This document shows, in pieces, positions 1,562-9,405 of a stretch of DNA of 59,690 bases; position 1 is the stretch's first letter, and the number at the start of each line of letters is the position of its first letter. The notes beneath the pieces were generated by a model. That model did no database searches. It worked only from the letters and a program-made list of their open reading frames with translations, and had not been told where the DNA came from. The stretch is from Candidatus Sulfotelmatobacter sp. GTDB lineage: Bacteria; Patescibacteriota; Microgenomatia; Levybacterales; UBA12049. Location of the stretch: contig DATMOG010000096.1 in assembly GCA_035568375.1 (NCBI GenBank), positions 1 through 59,690 of the forward strand, given 5' to 3'. Position numbers and translations under genes: made by a program.

Positions 1562-2128
1562 ATGGCTAGACAAAATAAAACAGATTTAAAAAACTGGATT
1601 GCAGAACATAAATTCTATGTAGGCATAGGGGTTTTTGTACTTGTGGTTGCTACTCTTAACGCAAATAGCAAAAGTAGTATTACAAATAATTCTACTCCAA
1701 CATCACAAGAACAAACGCAATCAATTTCAAACACGCCTACTCTACCGAAAGATCCTTGTAGACAATATATGGGGACGCAAATGTATGTAGATTGTGAAAA
1801 TGTCGGAGATGCAATGAATAAAGGACAACTGTTGAAATATCCACTAAAGGCAAAAGTTACTTTTGATAGTACTGCTTTATATATAACAAACGAAGATACT
1901 CAAAAATGGGAGGGATGCGGAGCAACTGTTAACGAACAAAACCCTGAGGGAGATAATTTTACATCTGACGGTTTTGACATAAATCCGGGTCAGACAGAAT
2001 CTATTGGTTGGGGTAATTTTGCGAACGCGGAGCAAGCACGATTTAATTATTTTCAAAAGAAACCACAAACTATAGATTTAGAATGCGCCGTCGGTAATCA
2101 AAATCATAGATCGCTATTTACACTCTAA
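1562..2128 (+). CDS. membrane-anchored extracytoplasmic protein, unknown function
   Basis: The ORF track starts at TTG 1517. ATG 1562 (MARQNK) precedes a single TM helix FYVGIGVFVLVVATL, and the rest is hydrophilic with several Cys. Divergent from the XRE gene. Confidence 0.55.
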   Translation: MARQNKTDLKNWIAEHKFYVGIGVFVLVVATLNANSKSSITNNSTPTSQEQTQSISNTPTLPKDPCRQYMGTQMYVDCENVGDAMNKGQLLKYPLKAKVTFDSTALYITNEDTQKWEGCGATVNEQNPEGDNFTSDGFDINPGQTESIGWGNFANAEQARFNYFQKKPQTIDLECAVGNQNHRSLFTL

Positions 2129-2169
2129 TTGAGACTTTCCTTTTAAGCCCCTGCTGCCTTGAGGTACTC

Positions 2170-2260
2170 CAAAAATTCTATCGAAACTCTCTAATAATCA
2201 TAAGAGTTAGCCTCGCTGAAAATTACTAGCAGCCTTGTAATAGTTTCTGGAGTAATACAA
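2170..2260 (+). repeat. intergenic module, degenerate copy L0
   Basis: CAAAAATTCTATCGAAACT.. then TTAGCCTCGCTGAAAATT..GCCTTGTAAT..CTGGAGTAATACAAT parallels copy D (TTAGCCTCAGAAATTT..GCCTTGACC..CTGGATTCGAACTGGTAAT). Confidence 0.3.
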
Positions 2261-2378
2261 TTTGACTACCATTTGAAAAATACAGCGTTTTACTCACACA
2301 TGCAAATTTCTCTTGTCATAGCCAAACTGGTGACGTGTGGCAGCTATACATACACATTACAGCGATTGATTTATGCCT

Positions 2379-2413
2379 GTAAAAAGTTTAAACTCTGTCT
2401 AACTCTGCCAAGT
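2379..2413 (+). repeat. intergenic module, partial copy L
   Basis: TGTAAAAAGTTTAAACTCTGTCTAACTCTGCCAAG resembles the J/M-type left arm. Confidence 0.4.
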
Positions 2414-2440
2414 ATTTAAAAATATGTTTACTAATTATTT

Positions 2441-3757
2441 ATGAAAAAGGCACAAAAGGAAATTATTGAAAAAGTAATTCAGCTAAACTTCCGTTCACAT
2501 TATACCGATTTAGTAAATTTTTCTAGAGCCTCATGGAGTTTATCCAGTAGTTTTCTTTCTTCATTGGGAACAATTCAAAAATTATCTCCTAAACAAAGAG
2601 TTGTAATCTTTATGATTGGTAAATCTATGAGATTACTTAGCTCAATAGATACACTTGTTGAAATTGGGTATTGGCCAGAAGCGGAGATATTATTAAGAGC
2701 AATCCTGGAAACGCAACAGTTAATGCTTTACATATTAAAAGATAAAACTAATGAGAGAGCAAAAAAATGGTTAAATAGAGAAAAAGCAACAGAGAGATGG
2801 GATTGGAAAGAAATAACAAAAGAATACGGAAAAACATATGAAACAATGTATTCTAATTTATCTCTTTATCCACATGGTCACATTTTATCGGTACAAAAGT
2901 ATATGAGAATTAAAGATGGAATGCTTTTTGTAGAGAAAGGTTCATTACCCTTGGGCATAGAGCCTCATGGGACGCGGTCTAAAGAAGTATTAGGAACGGC
3001 AGCAATGATAAACGCAGCCATGTGTGAAATCGGGTCATCTCAATTTAACTTGCCAAATGAATGGCACACAGAGCATATACAGCTAGAACAAATGTCTTTT
3101 TGGAAAGAACGACAAAAGAATGTTAAAGAAGCATTAGCTGATTCTGAAAAAAGAAAAATTATTGAAAACATGAGAAAAACAATGAAAAGTTTACATGCTA
3201 ACTTTACCATTGTATTTGTCCATGGATATACAGCATCTCATCTTGCAGATTGGTATCCAACAATTTCTGAAGAGCTTGATAGGCTAGGAATTGATTATGT
3301 TATCCCTGATTTACCAGGAGGCGATACACCACACGTAAACGGTTGGCTAAGTAAATTACATGGAATAGTTAAAAAGATAGATAAACCTCTTATTTTTGTT
3401 GGACATAGTCTTGGGGCGCGAACAGTTCTATTATATCTCGAAAAGTATAAACCTAAAGTAGAGAAAGTGTTTCTTATAGCTGCGTTTGCAAATGACATTG
3501 ATAATGCTAAAAGAAAAGATGGCAAATACTCAACCTTTTTTCAGAATAAAATTGATTTAAAAAATATAAAACCGTTCGTAAAGAAATTTATAGTTATGCA
3601 TTCTGAAGATGATAGTTCTATACCCTACAAACAAGGTAAACAAATAGCAGATGAATTGAATGCAGAGCTTATTACATACAAAGATAGAGATCATTTTAGT
3701 AATCCTAATAATGCATTATTTATTTTAGAACAATTACGAAAAGAGCTAAGATTTTAA
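2441..3757 (+). CDS. fusion protein: DUF5677-like helical N-domain + YdeN/RBBP9-type alpha/beta serine hydrolase C-domain
   Basis: 438 aa. The N-terminal ~250 aa contain IGYWPEAEILLRAILETQQLMLYI, typical of DUF5677-type domains (tentative). The C-terminal ~185 aa have FVHGY, GHSLGA (nucleophile elbow), HSEDD and DRDHF, giving a Ser/Asp/His triad. Confidence 0.7.
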   Translation: MKKAQKEIIEKVIQLNFRSHYTDLVNFSRASWSLSSSFLSSLGTIQKLSPKQRVVIFMIGKSMRLLSSIDTLVEIGYWPEAEILLRAILETQQLMLYILKDKTNERAKKWLNREKATERWDWKEITKEYGKTYETMYSNLSLYPHGHILSVQKYMRIKDGMLFVEKGSLPLGIEPHGTRSKEVLGTAAMINAAMCEIGSSQFNLPNEWHTEHIQLEQMSFWKERQKNVKEALADSEKRKIIENMRKTMKSLHANFTIVFVHGYTASHLADWYPTISEELDRLGIDYVIPDLPGGDTPHVNGWLSKLHGIVKKIDKPLIFVGHSLGARTVLLYLEKYKPKVEKVFLIAAFANDIDNAKRKDGKYSTFFQNKIDLKNIKPFVKKFIVMHSEDDSSIPYKQGKQIADELNAELITYKDRDHFSNPNNALFILEQLRKELRF

Positions 3758-3761
3758 TAAA

Positions 3762-5465
3762 ATGACACAAGAAAATATCTTACCTGATTCTAGAATTAAA
3801 ACATTAACCGTAGACGATATAAGACAGTTGCAAGCTATTGCAAAGCAAAAGTTTTTACTTTCAAGTAGTTATTTTTGGCTAACTATTGAAAATTCTCTTG
3901 AAGATGAAAATGCAACAATGCAGGTACATAAATGCACATGCGGGAATATTGTCTTATCATCCCCCCAATATTTAAAAGAGTGTAAAGAAAACTTTTTAAA
4001 ATATCATAGAACTGCATGTTGGCATCTTGAGGGACCTTTAGATTCTATAGAATATCTAACTGCAAATATTAGTAAAAGAGTTGATCATATAGTCTCGCTA
4101 TTAAAAGAGGATGTTTCATTAGCCATGAAGATGGCAGATGGATTATTACCTGTCGATAATTATAGCAATTTTGACTATTCATTATACAAATTAGAATATG
4201 CGGTTTGGATTCAGAGATCAAAATTTGGCAAAAGCTCTCAAGATACATACCGAATTGAATATTTAACCGCATTTGATGCATTAAAGCTAAAAGCTGGTAA
4301 AAAGAACAAGATTGAATATGAAAAACTAAAAAAATATTATACTGATCCCAAAAAAATGAAAGTATTAAGTGAATCTATGCAAACAGCACTTAATAAACAC
4401 TCTGAAGCATTTAATATCCTTGCTGATGAAGCTTATAAAAGAGTTACCCACGCCTTTTCTCCATCAACTAGATCACTTAAAAATTCTAAAAATAATGCTA
4501 TTAGATTAAATAGAGAGTTAATGTTAGATGCGTATCAAGCTTTCTTTGAAATAAAAGAGATCCTGGAAATCATATACAATTTCATAATTGTTATAAATGG
4601 AGGTACTTTCAATCAAAATCCTTTCGATGGCAAACGGATAAACGGAATTTTAATTCTAGATAAAAAAGGACTTATGATTAAAAAAATTTTGGAAGATTCA
4701 AAAGATAGAAAATTAAAATCCATCATCAACAAAGCTTATGATAGTAAATTTAGGAATAATACAGCAGGACATAATGACTATATAGTTAATCCAGAAAAAA
4801 AGGTTATTAAGGTAAAGTCAAAAAAAATTTCATATTCTTTTCAGTATGCTTCTGAAAAAGAAGAGCGCTTAATCGCTTTAATAACATCCCTCATTAGCTC
4901 ACTAATGTTTTCAATACACGATGATAATATTAAAGAATTGTCTTTAATGGGAATTACTACAATATGGCCAAGAACACAGGAAACAGATAAACCACTACCA
5001 GAAATTATGTCGACTCAATTTTGGAGTAATGCCCAGCTGGACAAAAACGGAGAAAATACTAATGCTCTTAGCTTGAAATTCTCTAAGGATCATAAATTTT
5101 TACATTTTAGCCATAATGAATCTATACCTGAGGGTAGTTTTAAATCTACTCCTTCACGACAATTATATGATTGGTTGATTTCAATTAAAGACAAATCAGA
5201 AATTTCTTATGAAAGAATTATAATTGCTCCTAAAACAGAACTTTTTTTATATCTTGCTAAAGGAGAATTAAAAATCGACAAGAACGACTACTTTATCTTA
5301 GGAATGACGCATCATATGTTAAAAGTTAATCAATCAAAGATTAAAAAAATCATAAAACTACTCAAAAAAAAGAATCTACCTGATTTAAATACGAGTACTT
5401 TTGGTCAAGTACTTTCAGCTGTTAAAAATTATAAAGATAAAAAATTAGATCAAGTTAAAATATGA
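3762..5465 (+). CDS. hypothetical protein (567 aa)
   Basis: 4-nt gap to the upstream gene and an ATGA overlap with the downstream gene. Cys/His cluster HKCTCGN..C..HRTAC near the N-terminus. No family recognised. Confidence 0.65.
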   Translation: MTQENILPDSRIKTLTVDDIRQLQAIAKQKFLLSSSYFWLTIENSLEDENATMQVHKCTCGNIVLSSPQYLKECKENFLKYHRTACWHLEGPLDSIEYLTANISKRVDHIVSLLKEDVSLAMKMADGLLPVDNYSNFDYSLYKLEYAVWIQRSKFGKSSQDTYRIEYLTAFDALKLKAGKKNKIEYEKLKKYYTDPKKMKVLSESMQTALNKHSEAFNILADEAYKRVTHAFSPSTRSLKNSKNNAIRLNRELMLDAYQAFFEIKEILEIIYNFIIVINGGTFNQNPFDGKRINGILILDKKGLMIKKILEDSKDRKLKSIINKAYDSKFRNNTAGHNDYIVNPEKKVIKVKSKKISYSFQYASEKEERLIALITSLISSLMFSIHDDNIKELSLMGITTIWPRTQETDKPLPEIMSTQFWSNAQLDKNGENTNALSLKFSKDHKFLHFSHNESIPEGSFKSTPSRQLYDWLISIKDKSEISYERIIIAPKTELFLYLAKGELKIDKNDYFILGMTHHMLKVNQSKIKKIIKLLKKKNLPDLNTSTFGQVLSAVKNYKDKKLDQVKI

Positions 5466-5698
5466 ATAATACTTATCAAACAAGAGAATTGTCGGAAGCA
5501 GCGGCTCTATTGTTGAACAAACAGCGTTTAGTTGAAATTAAAAGAGAAAAAAAAGTTTGTTGGTTTATATTTGATAACCAAAAAGAATGTGAACGGATAT
5601 CCAATGAGTTCTTTTTTGGAGAACTTATGGTAAATGCGCGTACTTATTATGAAGCAATAACTAGATTAAAAAACAGAATATTTGCACGAAGTAAATGA
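5462..5698 (+). CDS. DUF5659-like small protein (78 aa)
   Basis: TRELSEAAALLLNKQRLVEI..CWFIFDN..FFFGELMVNARTYYEAITRLKNRIF matches the DUF5659 pattern. ATGA overlaps on both sides. Confidence 0.6.
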   Translation: MNNTYQTRELSEAAALLLNKQRLVEIKREKKVCWFIFDNQKECERISNEFFFGELMVNARTYYEAITRLKNRIFARSK

Positions 5699-5823
5699 CA
5701 ATAGAGAGAGCAAGAAAAATATTAGGCAAAAGAGCAGAAAAACTTACAGATGAGGAAATACAAAAAATATTGAATCTGTTGATCTTAATTGCAAATAAAG
5801 CTATTGATGAAACAGTGAAGTAA
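5695..5823 (+). CDS. small helical protein (42 aa), not in the ORF track
   Basis: ATG 5695 overlaps the TGA of the upstream gene (ATGA). Product is MTIERARKILGKRAEKLTDEEIQKILNLLILIANKAIDETVK, with stop TAA at 5821-5823. The translational coupling supports coding. Confidence 0.45.
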   Translation: MTIERARKILGKRAEKLTDEEIQKILNLLILIANKAIDETVK

Positions 5824-5825
5824 TA

Positions 5826-6092
5826 TCAGAGAGCCTCTATCAAGTGCTTTTTTTGTTGATGAGTCAGTCTTTTTATTTCTGCTTCTCTGTGACAGGCAAA
5901 TTTATTAGTTGTATATTGTTCATAATGTACTAATCTTACCGGTCTTCTCACCTCCGTATATTTAGCACCTCCTGGTAATAGACCGTTATGTTGTTTAATT
6001 CTTCTTTCTATATTATTTGTTTTGCCGGTGTAATAAGATCCATCAGAACACTCTACCATATATGTATAATATGCCGGAAATGTTATACGCAT
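5826..6092 (-). CDS. GIY-YIG nuclease family protein (UPF0213/YhbQ-like)
   Basis: 88 aa. YYTYMVECSDGSYYTGKTNNIERRIKQHN carries the GIY/YIG-type motifs plus the conserved Arg. TGATATTAT box 6 nt upstream of the ATG. Confidence 0.85.
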   Translation of the reverse strand: MRITFPAYYTYMVECSDGSYYTGKTNNIERRIKQHNGLLPGGAKYTEVRRPVRLVHYEQYTTNKFACHREAEIKRLTHQQKKHLIEAL

Positions 6093-6098
6093 AGATAA

Positions 6099-6107
6099 AT
6101 AATATCA
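6099..6107 (-). promoter_or_regulatory. extended -10 TGATATTAT, 6 nt upstream of the GIY-YIG ATG
   Basis: Read directly from the sequence. Spacing implies a leaderless transcript. Confidence 0.55.
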
Positions 6108-6184
6108 ATCAAAAGAGTCAACGAAAAGTATCACTTTATTGCAAGCTAAAATAATCTTATAGTATTTTAATTTATAGTATTCTC

Positions 6185-6193
6185 TGCTATAAT
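6185..6193 (+). promoter_or_regulatory. extended -10 TGCTATAAT for the four-gene unit 6211-9405
   Basis: 17 nt upstream of ATG 6211, in the only sizeable gap before the unit. Confidence 0.5.
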
Positions 6194-6210
6194 TAGTTCA
6201 ACTTTATATT

Positions 6211-6774
6211 ATGAATTCAAAACAATACGATAAAAGAGAAAAAGTTCTGAGAAAGCTTACTGTTGAGAGAGCTAATCTAGGTAAAGCAGGAGAGTTTCTT
6301 GTTGCGGGGAAATTATTACTTAATGGATTTAACGTTTATAACGGAGCTATAGACGATGGTATTGATCTTGTCGCAAGAAAGAGAAGAAAATTCTACTATA
6401 TTCAGGTAAAAACCTGTCAAGATATAGATTATGATAGCGGGAAGTTTATGGCAAAAATTAATCTTAGTACTTTATCTAAATATCCTCATAAAAATACATT
6501 TGTAGTATTAGTGTTACATTTCTTAGGACCCACAACTTCACTCGATTTTATGGGAGACCACACAAAATATGATCAGGACTATATTGTCTTACCGGTTAAT
6601 AAACTAATTAGTTTTTTTCAAAAAGAAACAGGTGATATAACTTTTCGAATATATTATTCAATACTAATGGATCTACCGCAAAATACTCATTGGATCGCGA
6701 AACTAAAATATAACAAAAGAGAATTAATTTTGGATGATTTTATGCTTGATTCATTTTGGCAAATAGAAATATAG
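6211..6774 (+). CDS. PD-(D/E)xK endonuclease-like protein (PF11645-type)
   Basis: LGKAGEFLVAGKLLLNGFNVYNGAIDDGIDLVARKRRKFYYIQVKT fits the GxxGE...D...(Q/E)VK core of this nuclease family. First gene of a four-gene unit. Confidence 0.55.
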   Translation: MNSKQYDKREKVLRKLTVERANLGKAGEFLVAGKLLLNGFNVYNGAIDDGIDLVARKRRKFYYIQVKTCQDIDYDSGKFMAKINLSTLSKYPHKNTFVVLVLHFLGPTTSLDFMGDHTKYDQDYIVLPVNKLISFFQKETGDITFRIYYSILMDLPQNTHWIAKLKYNKRELILDDFMLDSFWQIEI

Positions 6775-6780
6775 ATAAAT

Positions 6781-8046
6781 ATGCAAAAATTTGATGGATA
6801 TTACACAGTTAAGGAATTGTCGGAGATTCTTAAAGTAGCGAAATCTACCGTTAGATCCTGGATAAAGAATGGCAAATTAACGGCCACAAAAAGAGCTGGA
6901 ATGCTCCTTATATCTTATGATAATGAAATAAACAATAATTTTTTTGTAGAGCAGATTAGAAAAAAGCATTATCGCCCCAAAAAACCCTATACAGCTGAAA
7001 ATATTAAAGGTTATGCAGAATGGCATGCATTGCTTGATGAATTTTCATGGTTAATTAAAGTGTCATATAGCTCTCCAAATCAAGTGAAAAAGAAAAATTT
7101 TCGAGCTGATCAACTTTTTGCTAATTATATAAATTTGAACAAGATTAAGATTGAAAAAATAAATCGAATGTTTAGATTTAATCCTAAACCGAAAAAGTCA
7201 TTGATTGATGATGATATTAAAAGAGGTTGGTATAATGAAATTTCTTATTTATTGCCACTTAAAAAATCAACATTAGGACATTCATTTAACGATATTACTT
7301 TAAATATGAAAAGCTCCGAGTTGCGTTTTGAATTTCCCTCCTGGAAAATTATTTCTTGTTACTATGCAGTGTATTTTTATTTGCGTTCTATAACGCTATT
7401 TGGATTTGACAATTTCAGATTATCTGAACATAATTCAACAATTAATTCTTTCAAAAATAATATATTGAATCCTCTTAGTAAAACAATTTGGAAATTTCCT
7501 TTTGATATATCATATGTGCCGCAAAAGAGGAAATATCGTTCACAATTGCTAATACAAAATTTAAGACATACTCAATTTAGATATTCAGCATATCCACGAG
7601 AACCTTTTGCGCTACCAATTCAACTTTTTGAGAATATTTATAATAATTTTAAAAAGAGAGGAAAAGCTTTTAAAAAACCATGTATATATACAATATTTGA
7701 TTATTTACATGATTTTCGTACTTGGGCAAATTATTTAGATATCGATAACCTACTTAGTCTTAGAGGCACTGGATATAAAACTTTTTTGGATCAAAACCTT
7801 TCATTAATTCTCTTTTTTATTGGTGGCATCTCTGAACTTTGTTATATTGCCGTTTTTGGTAAGAATGTCTATATAGAAGTCTTACAAAAATTTTATGATG
7901 AGTTTGTTACAAATAGTCCTAGATTAGTAGAAGATTTTATATATACTTCTATCTATCAACGTTTGGCTATTTATAATAAATTAGGTTTAATGGATGCAAG
8001 TATTAAGCTGAAAAAAACAGATATTAATACTGTATCTATTAGTTAA
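6781..8046 (+). CDS. HTH (excisionase/MerR-type) domain protein with large helical C-terminal domain
   Basis: The N-terminus YYTVKELSEILKVAKSTVRSWIKNGKL is an excisionase-type HTH. The C-terminal strings SCYYAVYFYLRS..SEH and LHDFRTWANYLD are only faintly reminiscent of UPF0332/HEPN helices. Confidence 0.55.
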   Translation: MQKFDGYYTVKELSEILKVAKSTVRSWIKNGKLTATKRAGMLLISYDNEINNNFFVEQIRKKHYRPKKPYTAENIKGYAEWHALLDEFSWLIKVSYSSPNQVKKKNFRADQLFANYINLNKIKIEKINRMFRFNPKPKKSLIDDDIKRGWYNEISYLLPLKKSTLGHSFNDITLNMKSSELRFEFPSWKIISCYYAVYFYLRSITLFGFDNFRLSEHNSTINSFKNNILNPLSKTIWKFPFDISYVPQKRKYRSQLLIQNLRHTQFRYSAYPREPFALPIQLFENIYNNFKKRGKAFKKPCIYTIFDYLHDFRTWANYLDIDNLLSLRGTGYKTFLDQNLSLILFFIGGISELCYIAVFGKNVYIEVLQKFYDEFVTNSPRLVEDFIYTSIYQRLAIYNKLGLMDASIKLKKTDINTVSIS

Positions 8047-8760: not shown

Positions 8761-9405
8761 ATGGCAGATAATAAACGTACACAAATTATTGACAAAAACC
8801 CAAACAAAATTCCTAACAATATAGTTATCACATGGGGAAATAACAAAGTTAGCTTAGGAAAATTTAGATTTGCTAAAAACGGTTCTTTCTATTTTTCTAC
8901 TCCACAATTTGATAAAACCTCAATGGAAATTGGTAGTGCATTGAAAGTAAAAGATACATTTCAAATAAAATCTAAAGAAGCGACATATCAAACAACAAAA
9001 GGAGTTCATTTATCTCTTCATCCACCGGACGATAAACATGAAAAAGGAATCTTACAGTTGACAGGAGCTGATTCTGCCAAACCAGTAGGAAAGGTTGTCC
9101 TTGATTGGTTTCCTGTTAAGGGTCCCTTTAAATTGTTCCATTTCTTTACATTACCGCTTGATTTAGCTCCAGTGGTGAATTCAAAAGCAATATTTACAAC
9201 CCCTATACCTGAGAAGTATAAAGATTCTTTAGAAATTATCGTAGATATTTTACCGATTGAAAATGGATTAATGTCTGTTCCAATGTATGACAATGATATT
9301 TGGAATTTTACTGGATTTTCTGCATTTGGTTATGCAGTTTCTACCCGCTTAGTTTTTGCAAATCAGAGGCTAGTACCACAAATATATTACATCAATGAGT
9401 TTTAA
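8761..9405 (+). CDS. hypothetical protein (214 aa)
   Basis: 15-nt gap after the upstream gene. Beta-rich orphan and last gene of the four-gene unit. Confidence 0.55.
   Translation: MADNKRTQIIDKNPNKIPNNIVITWGNNKVSLGKFRFAKNGSFYFSTPQFDKTSMEIGSALKVKDTFQIKSKEATYQTTKGVHLSLHPPDDKHEKGILQLTGADSAKPVGKVVLDWFPVKGPFKLFHFFTLPLDLAPVVNSKAIFTTPIPEKYKDSLEIIVDILPIENGLMSVPMYDNDIWNFTGFSAFGYAVSTRLVFANQRLVPQIYYINEF

Follow-up and report, generated by a model that had tools for sequence, protein, structure and literature searches.

Does a short run of closely packed genes in an uncultured bacterium form a conflict system and, if so, which of its products would be the effector? This question is raised by positions 2441-5823 of the 59,690-nucleotide (nt) contig DATMOG010000096.1 (assembly GCA_035568375.1, Candidatus Sulfotelmatobacter sp., placed by GTDB in the Patescibacteriota), which was analysed over its whole length and is called the window in what follows. 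Four open reading frames (ORFs), named A to D, are found in this region, and the first of them joins a DUF5677-like domain to a serine hydrolase. An earlier note on this DNA proposed a conflict system with DUF5677 as sensor and the hydrolase as effector, the other products being its helpers. To our knowledge, very little work has addressed the conflict and defence systems of candidate-phyla-radiation bacteria, and we know of no function assigned to DUF5677. The analysis carried out here points tentatively to a different division of roles, a mobile conflict-type module whose core would be formed by the DUF5677 protein and the product of gene B, with B as candidate effector (a HEPN-like ribonuclease, RNase, as judged by its motif), the DUF5677 protein as its partner and the hydrolase as a lineage-specific accessory. 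This is the preferred reading, held at a level somewhat short of probable. The data establish the gene structure, the domain assignments, the conserved pair and the lack of a second such fusion among the matches examined, and from these the conflict role, the RNase activity of B, the regulatory part of DUF5677 and the kind of hydrolase substrate are inferred.

Gene A (2441..3757, forward strand) encodes a protein of 438 amino acids (aa) in which a DUF5677-family protein and a YdeN/RBBP9-type serine hydrolase, both complete, lie end to end. The all-helical DUF5677-like domain occupies 2441..3181 (forward strand, aa 1-247) and the hydrolase domain 3182..3757 (forward strand, aa 248-438), the latter starting at an internal ATG (M248). 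Gene B (3762..5465, forward strand) codes for a 567-aa protein that was assigned by homologue search to a small undescribed family. The four ORFs were confirmed at the coordinates read earlier, with a gap of 4 nt between the stop of A (3757) and the start of B (3762). The window DNA was found in a single soil-metagenome run, and an independent Logan contig of the same run (depth about 8) is identical over positions 2000-6200; the fusion junction of A can thus hardly be an artefact of a single assembly.

That the large downstream protein is a real and conserved partner of DUF5677, as had been supposed from the window sequence, was borne out by the related loci. The pair is present in the window and in four other loci (L004, L008, L011 and L012), with spacings of 4-107 nt between both genes in these five loci. 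B lies directly downstream of DUF5677 in five of eight distinct contexts, which correspond to the nine loci with a readable flank of the DUF5677 subfamily, L016 and L017 being counted as one. Because B is very rare in the 5.8e9-cluster database, a chance adjacency of both genes can be considered negligible. In L004 the DUF5677 gene is followed, after a 15-nt gap, by a short 447-aa form of B (25% identity, E 5e-25), and the pair has cell-division genes as neighbours and no visible element genes. The locus L008, from Ca. Berkelbacteria and the sole match in GTDB genomes, codes for a 284-aa DUF5677 protein and, 107 nt later, for a full-length B of 574 aa that keeps the Cys cluster and the RNx4HNxY motif described below; a serine-recombinase-like gene, recognised by eye from the sequence, is found upstream within 1 kb of the DUF5677 gene. 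The short contigs L011 and L012 contain DUF5677 and then the start of a short-form B. Searches for related loci with narrower alignments gave one genome locus and two metagenome loci. An unrelated 56-aa fragment lies downstream of DUF5677 in L013, and in L018 a protein of 638 aa ends in the DUF5677 domain. Within these small numbers, the short form of B has been seen only with DUF5677 upstream (three of three: L004, L011 and L012), and the long form both with it (two loci) and without it (three contexts).

The hosts of this pair are probably Patescibacteria. The proposed core would consist of a DUF5677 helical protein of ~250 aa followed by a B protein of 450-585 aa, located in variable regions of uncultured bacteria that are associated with recombinases or integrases, and would act in conflict, either in defence or as an addiction module. 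The same neighbourhoods allow another interpretation, that the pair is of use to the mobile element that carries it, for example in its replication, maintenance or regulation, and has no role in defence or as a toxin. B is found in L007/L009 inside an element with an integrase (seen in L007), a divergent helix-turn-helix (HTH) repressor gene and FtsK-gamma-like genes, and in L005 near a Resolvase-domain gene; moreover, a divergent HTH_3 gene located upstream in the window is 34% identical to the HTH gene of L007/L009, and the putative zinc module of B could bind DNA. However, no replication, partition or transfer domain was detectable in B or in DUF5677, the L004 pair has cell-division genes and no visible element genes around it, and B is broken in L007 while the integrase and HTH genes remain, as expected of dispensable cargo. 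A service role of the pair for its element is considered distinctly unlikely.

Two further observations concern B in these elements. In L007 (10001-11686) the gene is split into ORFs of 343, 94 and 139 aa and is probably a pseudogene, and the near-identical L009 element holds an intact 561-aa gene. A 304-aa, apparently multi-pass membrane protein adjoins B in L005 (2052-2966, forward strand) and in L009 (4136-5050, reverse strand). Both membrane proteins are 63% identical, one gene sharing the strand of B and the other being convergent with it, and they may represent an alternative partner of B. This protein was looked for in L006 and not found, and it is also absent from the window.

Within the preferred reading, B would be the likely effector, since its sole invariant polar cluster, RNx4HNxY, is placed by prediction at a helix end in a helical-hairpin core and corresponds in form and position to the motif of a HEPN RNase active site. 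B had been described as an orphan, which holds insofar as no family-library match was obtained and fails insofar as four database relatives (31-56% identity) and homologues in L004, L008, L009 and L010 were recovered. A profile-based homologue search gave no new members, and it missed even the B of L004, so that its reach was limited by the word index. The N-terminal Cys/His cluster noted earlier (3927..4025, forward strand; H56-K-C58-x-C60-G ... C86-W-H88) is invariant in the long forms and constitutes a putative zinc-binding module with the potential to bind nucleic acid. The short B of 447 aa lacks this cluster, the L004 short form being devoid of the first ~100 aa. All forms of B share E185, E263, an NGGxFxxxPF loop and the motif R331-N332-x4-H337-N338-D-Y340 (4752..4781, forward strand), whose residues R331, N332, H337, N338 and Y340 are invariant across seven sequences that are 24-56% identical.

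Proteins of the HEPN superfamily are characterised by an Rx4-6H motif in which the R is usually followed by N, D or H, by an insert between helices 2 and 3 and by an upstream acidic residue (PMC3710099). The segment R331-N-N-T-A-G-H337 of B, with a spacer of five residues and N after R, has the Rx4-6H form described in that survey. A model of B obtained with AlphaFold2 (AF2) from an alignment of five sequences has a mean pLDDT of 56, with values of 67-94 in the core (aa ~160-380), and predicts the order helix 243-262, helix 265-278, conserved insert 279-301, helix 302-331 ending in the motif, a loop and hairpin, and helix 360-389. This predicted secondary structure fits the HEPN order, although the motif loop has a pLDDT of only about 56 and a hairpin comes after the motif. 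As in the HEPN RNase toxins and HEPN-MNT pairs (Anantharaman et al. 2013, PMC3710099), the R-N-x4-H residues of B would be situated at a helix end, with a helical hairpin and a conserved insert before them. As a lead, the core of B (aa ~243-389) may be regarded as HEPN-like by its motif and predicted helix order. Unlike known HEPN families, neither B nor DUF5677 is matched by a HEPN model or structure, and the seven members of the B family gave no Pfam HEPN match when searched at E up to 10. B also differs from HEPN toxins in its 567 aa, with additional N- and C-terminal regions, and in the beta-hairpin after the motif. Profiles of whole B and of its core compared with the PDB gave noise only (V-ATPase subunit I, Prp8). 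The possibility that B is a second copy of DUF5677 was also considered and rejected, as an hhalign comparison of B with DUF5677 revealed no relation.

The N-terminal domain of A was correctly read as DUF5677-like. It matches PF18928 at aa 53-129 (E 2.1e-10, 41.4 bits versus a Pfam cutoff of 27.1), covering only positions 2-77 of the 166 in the hidden Markov model (HMM), and the domain alone scores 45.7 bits. PF18928 is matched by all 21 members of the subfamily to which this domain belongs, and K61, R64, G76, E80, R86, E90, W110, Y137, H145, H147 and E196 are invariant among these 21 members. Four standalone relatives of 251-258 aa, with 44-51% identity over the N-terminal half of A, were found in the 5.8e9-cluster database. 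The AF2 model of the domain (pLDDT 85.9) is all-alpha with one hairpin. In this model a conserved Ex3R motif (E82...R86) is predicted on a core helix and the conserved H145/H147 just after the next core helix; the domain has no Rx4-6H motif.

A tie of this domain to Abi or HEPN proteins was not sustained, its only trace being a non-significant best Foldseek match to AbiV (E 0.43). The top PDB matches of the model were AbiV (9bj7) and the HEPN protein 4nqf, at E values of 0.43-1.7 amid helical-bundle noise, and the fold search gave no match at E <= 0.001 in PDB or BFVD. The DUF5677 profile compared with PDB sequences retrieved only Enkurin (E 0.5), with no profile link to AbiV or to any solved structure. 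Some likeness to AbiV, a HEPN RNase of Lactococcus lactis with an RNA antitoxin (PDB 9bj6/9bj7), can be described nevertheless. AbiV is likewise helical, has about 200-250 aa and belongs to an abortive-infection setting, and its chains are the best Foldseek matches of the DUF5677 model alongside 4nqf. The position of H145/H147 may also be compared with the alternative conserved H of AbiV, which according to the 2013 HEPN survey lacks the canonical H (PMC3710099); a 2024 AbiV preprint gives the consensus Rx4-6H motif for AbiV (bioRxiv 10.1101/2024.05.05.592566). On the other side, the structural similarity falls short of significance (E 0.43-1.8, TM 0.26-0.45), sequence and profile comparisons gave no link, DUF5677 is devoid of the Rx4-6H motif, and the partner of DUF5677 is a large protein whereas that of AbiV is an RNA. 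In the preferred reading the DUF5677 protein would be a controlling or complementing partner of B.

Members of the DUF5677 family have been found enriched next to defence-marking serine recombinases in the RADS screen (preprint, PMC12632615). The ORFs of that screen belong to the same Pfam family, and the recombinase-like gene of L008 and the Resolvase-domain gene of L005 recall their setting; however, they come from Bacillota and stand alone, whereas the subfamily of A matches only the first half of the HMM and comes with B.

Several observations weigh against the preferred reading. Concerning a conflict role, the products of A-D gave no match in PADLOC-DB v2, and the 21 DUF5677 and seven B members gave only stray matches (E 0.01 or weaker); no relatives of A or B were present among viral contigs or plasmids; and, while five ORFs of the RADS screen reduced plaquing, the one DUF5677 ORF tested there (from Bacillota, assayed in E. 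faecalis) did not belong to them (PMC12632615). With respect to the pair, the sample is small (about nine loci) and entirely metagenomic, DUF5677 occurs without B in L016/L017 and L018, and B occurs without DUF5677 in L005, L006/L010 and L007/L009. Regarding B itself, no match was obtained in Pfam, NCBIfam, PHROGs or PDB sequences, nor in PADLOC, and its conserved E263 stands outside any Ex3[KR] motif. Because the model of whole B is poor and its Foldseek search returned noise, the HEPN reading of B relies on the motif and the predicted secondary structure. A comparison with type II toxin-antitoxin pairs is similarly divided: the adjacency is tight in five loci, yet each gene also occurs alone and B is large. 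The conflict-system setting proposed in the earlier note stood as far as the neighbours are concerned, with GIY-YIG, PDDEXK-like, HTH_17 and PD-Lambda-3_A-like genes in the window and recombinase/integrase, RelB and HsdM genes in related loci; A and B themselves match no PADLOC model.

The hydrolase half of A was confirmed as a YdeN/RBBP9-type enzyme, with a match to PF06821 (Ser_hydrolase) at aa 258-419 (E 1.4e-15, 58 bits versus a Pfam cutoff of 22). The GHSLG, HSEDD and DRDHF motifs, at aa 321, 387 and 415, coincide in the alignment with the Ser, Asp and His residues of YdeN and RBBP9, and the triad predicted by alignment to solved structures is S323 (nt 3407-3409), D391 (nt 3611-3613) and H418 (nt 3692-3694). 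The alignment reached E 1.2e-13 with YdeN of B. subtilis (1uxo) and included RBBP9 (2qs9/9fcr), with overall E values of 1e-13 to 2e-12. With ~190 aa, this half has the same length as the standalone enzymes and would place GHS323LG, D391 and H418 on their catalytic positions, and it differs from YdeN and RBBP9 in being fused to a DUF5677 protein. We know of no bacterial enzyme of the YdeN/RBBP9 type for which a physiological substrate has been established. Most relatives of the hydrolase stand alone and have 186-191 aa, P0012 (191 aa, 56% identity) being an example, and the closest one in the 5.8e9-cluster database is P0002, of 248 aa and 69% identical over the hydrolase half. In the L001 region 813-1843 (also in L002 and L003) the P0002 ORF follows a RelB gene, with a P-loop kinase gene behind it, and its first ~60 aa look by eye like a truncated RelE/ParE toxin joined in frame to the hydrolase. 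The idea that the hydrolase was recently exchanged as DNA between L001 and the window was rejected, as the DNA identity is 71% and confined to the coding region, with no shared cassette boundary.

No counterpart of the A-type fusion, which the earlier note did not know from characterised proteins, was found among the matches examined. An exhaustive phmmer scan of A against 1.84e9 (1.84 billion) representatives gave no protein spanning both domains among the best 150 matches, down to 76 bits, and the relatives of A in the 5.8e9-cluster database split cleanly into hydrolase-only and DUF5677-only proteins. In the alignment, standalone DUF5677 proteins stop at the ...ENMRKT of A and standalone hydrolases begin at M248-KSLHANF, with an in-frame ATG at 3182 right at the domain junction. 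Since the junction coincides with the natural end and start of the standalone relatives, A can be described as an end-to-end join of two complete proteins. GC and GC content at third codon positions (GC3) are flat across the four genes, which therefore show no compositional sign of a recent insertion.

How much meaning this join carries is the point at issue with the main rival of the preferred reading, according to which an unrelated small hydrolase landed by accident between DUF5677 and B, the stop codon being lost or the hydrolase still being translated from the ATG at 3182, with no functional coupling. The absence of a second protein with both domains among the best 150 matches speaks for such an accident, as do the position of the junction exactly at the natural DUF5677 end and hydrolase Met start and the lack of anything between DUF5677 and B in L004, L008, L011 and L012. 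Furthermore, the fusion to DUF5677 could be incidental because the hydrolase fuses to many unrelated partners: the 69%-identical relative is joined to the truncated RelE/ParE-like N-terminus behind RelB, and other relatives are joined to adenylate kinase, Ham1, methyltransferase or NUDIX or are located inside UvrB and a LeuRS-like protein.

Against an accident, both halves of A keep all the residues invariant in their families, and PF06821 is linked to DUF5677 a second time in L016 (3932-5804; also in L017, 1497-3369), where a gene for a 355-aa protein stops 1 nt before the DUF5677 gene. This protein combines a Ser_hydrolase domain (E 8.7e-17) with an ANT(2'')-type nucleotidyltransferase (NTase; E 6.7e-29). 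The hydrolases of L016/L017 and A are only 25% identical and the DUF5677 domains 38%, and this is therefore a separate hydrolase-DUF5677 association. Two associations in eight contexts, for a domain that is normally rare per genome, indicate that the link may be recurrent. The order of L016/L017, with an NTase-containing gene and then DUF5677 after a 1-nt gap, also resembles the MNT-then-HEPN order of HEPN-MNT pairs; DUF6788, integrase and HsdM genes are located downstream. A purely incidental fusion is considered possible and somewhat unlikely.

The same evidence bears on the four-gene conflict system of the earlier note, with a DUF5677 sensor, the hydrolase as effector and B, C and D as helpers. 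The triad is intact, the association of hydrolase and DUF5677 appears again in L016/L017 and the four ORFs are tightly packed. However, the hydrolase is missing from four of the five loci with the DUF5677 and B pair, its family is promiscuous in its fusions, and no defence model is matched. A part of the hydrolase as core effector was not supported, the nearest DUF5677 relatives being standalone proteins that keep B and have no hydrolase. Neither was the conservation of the four-gene unit upheld, since none of the related loci contains a homologue of C or D; the other genes in the first 10 kb of the window have none there either, except for a generic HTH gene, and the four-gene unit is thus specific to this genome. 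A hydrolase-centred system of this kind is judged clearly improbable. In the preferred reading the hydrolase, joined to the DUF5677 C-terminus in this genome alone, would be an accessory and not the core effector.

Some indication of what such an accessory might do comes from the partners of the hydrolase elsewhere. About one in seven of the listed hydrolase matches has extra regions (among them the phmmer matches P0057, P0060, P0103, P0124, P0063, P0054, P0075 and P0111). Fusions supported by Pfam comprise adenylate kinase + hydrolase, Ham1 + hydrolase and hydrolase + methyltransferase; one UvrB has the hydrolase inserted in frame between its helicase lobes (aa 441-609 of 845), and a 1169-aa protein resembling leucyl-tRNA synthetase (LeuRS) combines the editing domain and the C-half of LeuRS with NUDIX and two copies of the hydrolase. 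Further partners recognised by eye were a second alpha/beta hydrolase, a tRNA-binding domain and NUDIX boxes. As most of these partners handle nucleotides, tRNA or RNA, the analogy suggests that the substrate of the hydrolase may be sought in this area, and in the proposed module the enzyme may act on an ester in nucleotide, tRNA or RNA chemistry, as its fusion partners in related organisms would indicate.

A bolder version of the preferred reading can be formulated from these data, although we consider it unlikely. DUF5677 and B would then be a new two-component conflict system of Patescibacteria-like organisms, in which B represents a divergent HEPN-type RNase family with a zinc-ribbon front, gated by DUF5677 as a degenerate HEPN/AbiV-like protein; the hydrolase would be a recurrent in-frame add-on to nucleotide, tRNA and RNA proteins, including the essential UvrB, and hence would have an ester-linked nucleotide or RNA substrate. 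If this two-component reading were true, it would point to such a substrate for the long-unexplained YdeN/RBBP9 family. Should the fusion instead prove incidental, what is left is a new small protein family beside a DUF. The DUF5677 and B genes offer a concrete two-gene unit with targets for mutation (R331/H337 in B, H145/H147 in DUF5677, and the hydrolase residue S323). The fusion in A together with the L016/L017 arrangement provides a link of the Rosetta-stone type between PF06821 hydrolases and DUF5677, and this link and the other partners constitute a first contextual hint on the substrates of bacterial YdeN/RBBP9-type enzymes.

The unit is completed in the window by two small genes. Gene C (5462..5698, forward strand) encodes a 78-aa protein that was rightly taken as DUF5659-like (PF18903, E 1.9e-7, 31.3 bits versus a Pfam cutoff of 23.6, HMM positions 1-74 of 75), and gene D (5695..5823, forward strand) a 42-aa helical peptide. 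The ATGA overlaps reported for these genes are present at 5462-5465 (B/C) and 5695-5698 (C/D). A scan for promoters and terminators gave signals not above those of shuffled sequences. An 88-aa ORF on the reverse strand at 77-343 weakly resembles C (pairwise E 0.005, 20% identity, no Pfam match reported) and could represent another gene of the DUF5659 type, placed at the opposite border of the region.

Three nuclease- or regulator-like genes are located downstream of D (5826-8046). The first is an 88-aa standalone GIY-YIG gene convergent with D, the stops of both genes being 2 nt apart; it is followed by genes for a 187-aa weak PDDEXK_5-like protein and for a protein of 421 aa whose N-terminus matches an HTH_17 / MAD1-like helix-turn-helix, the rest being uncharacterised. 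A 226-aa protein encoded at 8065-8745 matches PD-Lambda-3_A of PADLOC (E 1.8e-22), and the next ORF (8761-9405, 214 aa) has no match. The remaining window contains ordinary chromosomal genes (HflX, TypA/BipA, transporters), with a GC content of about 31%.

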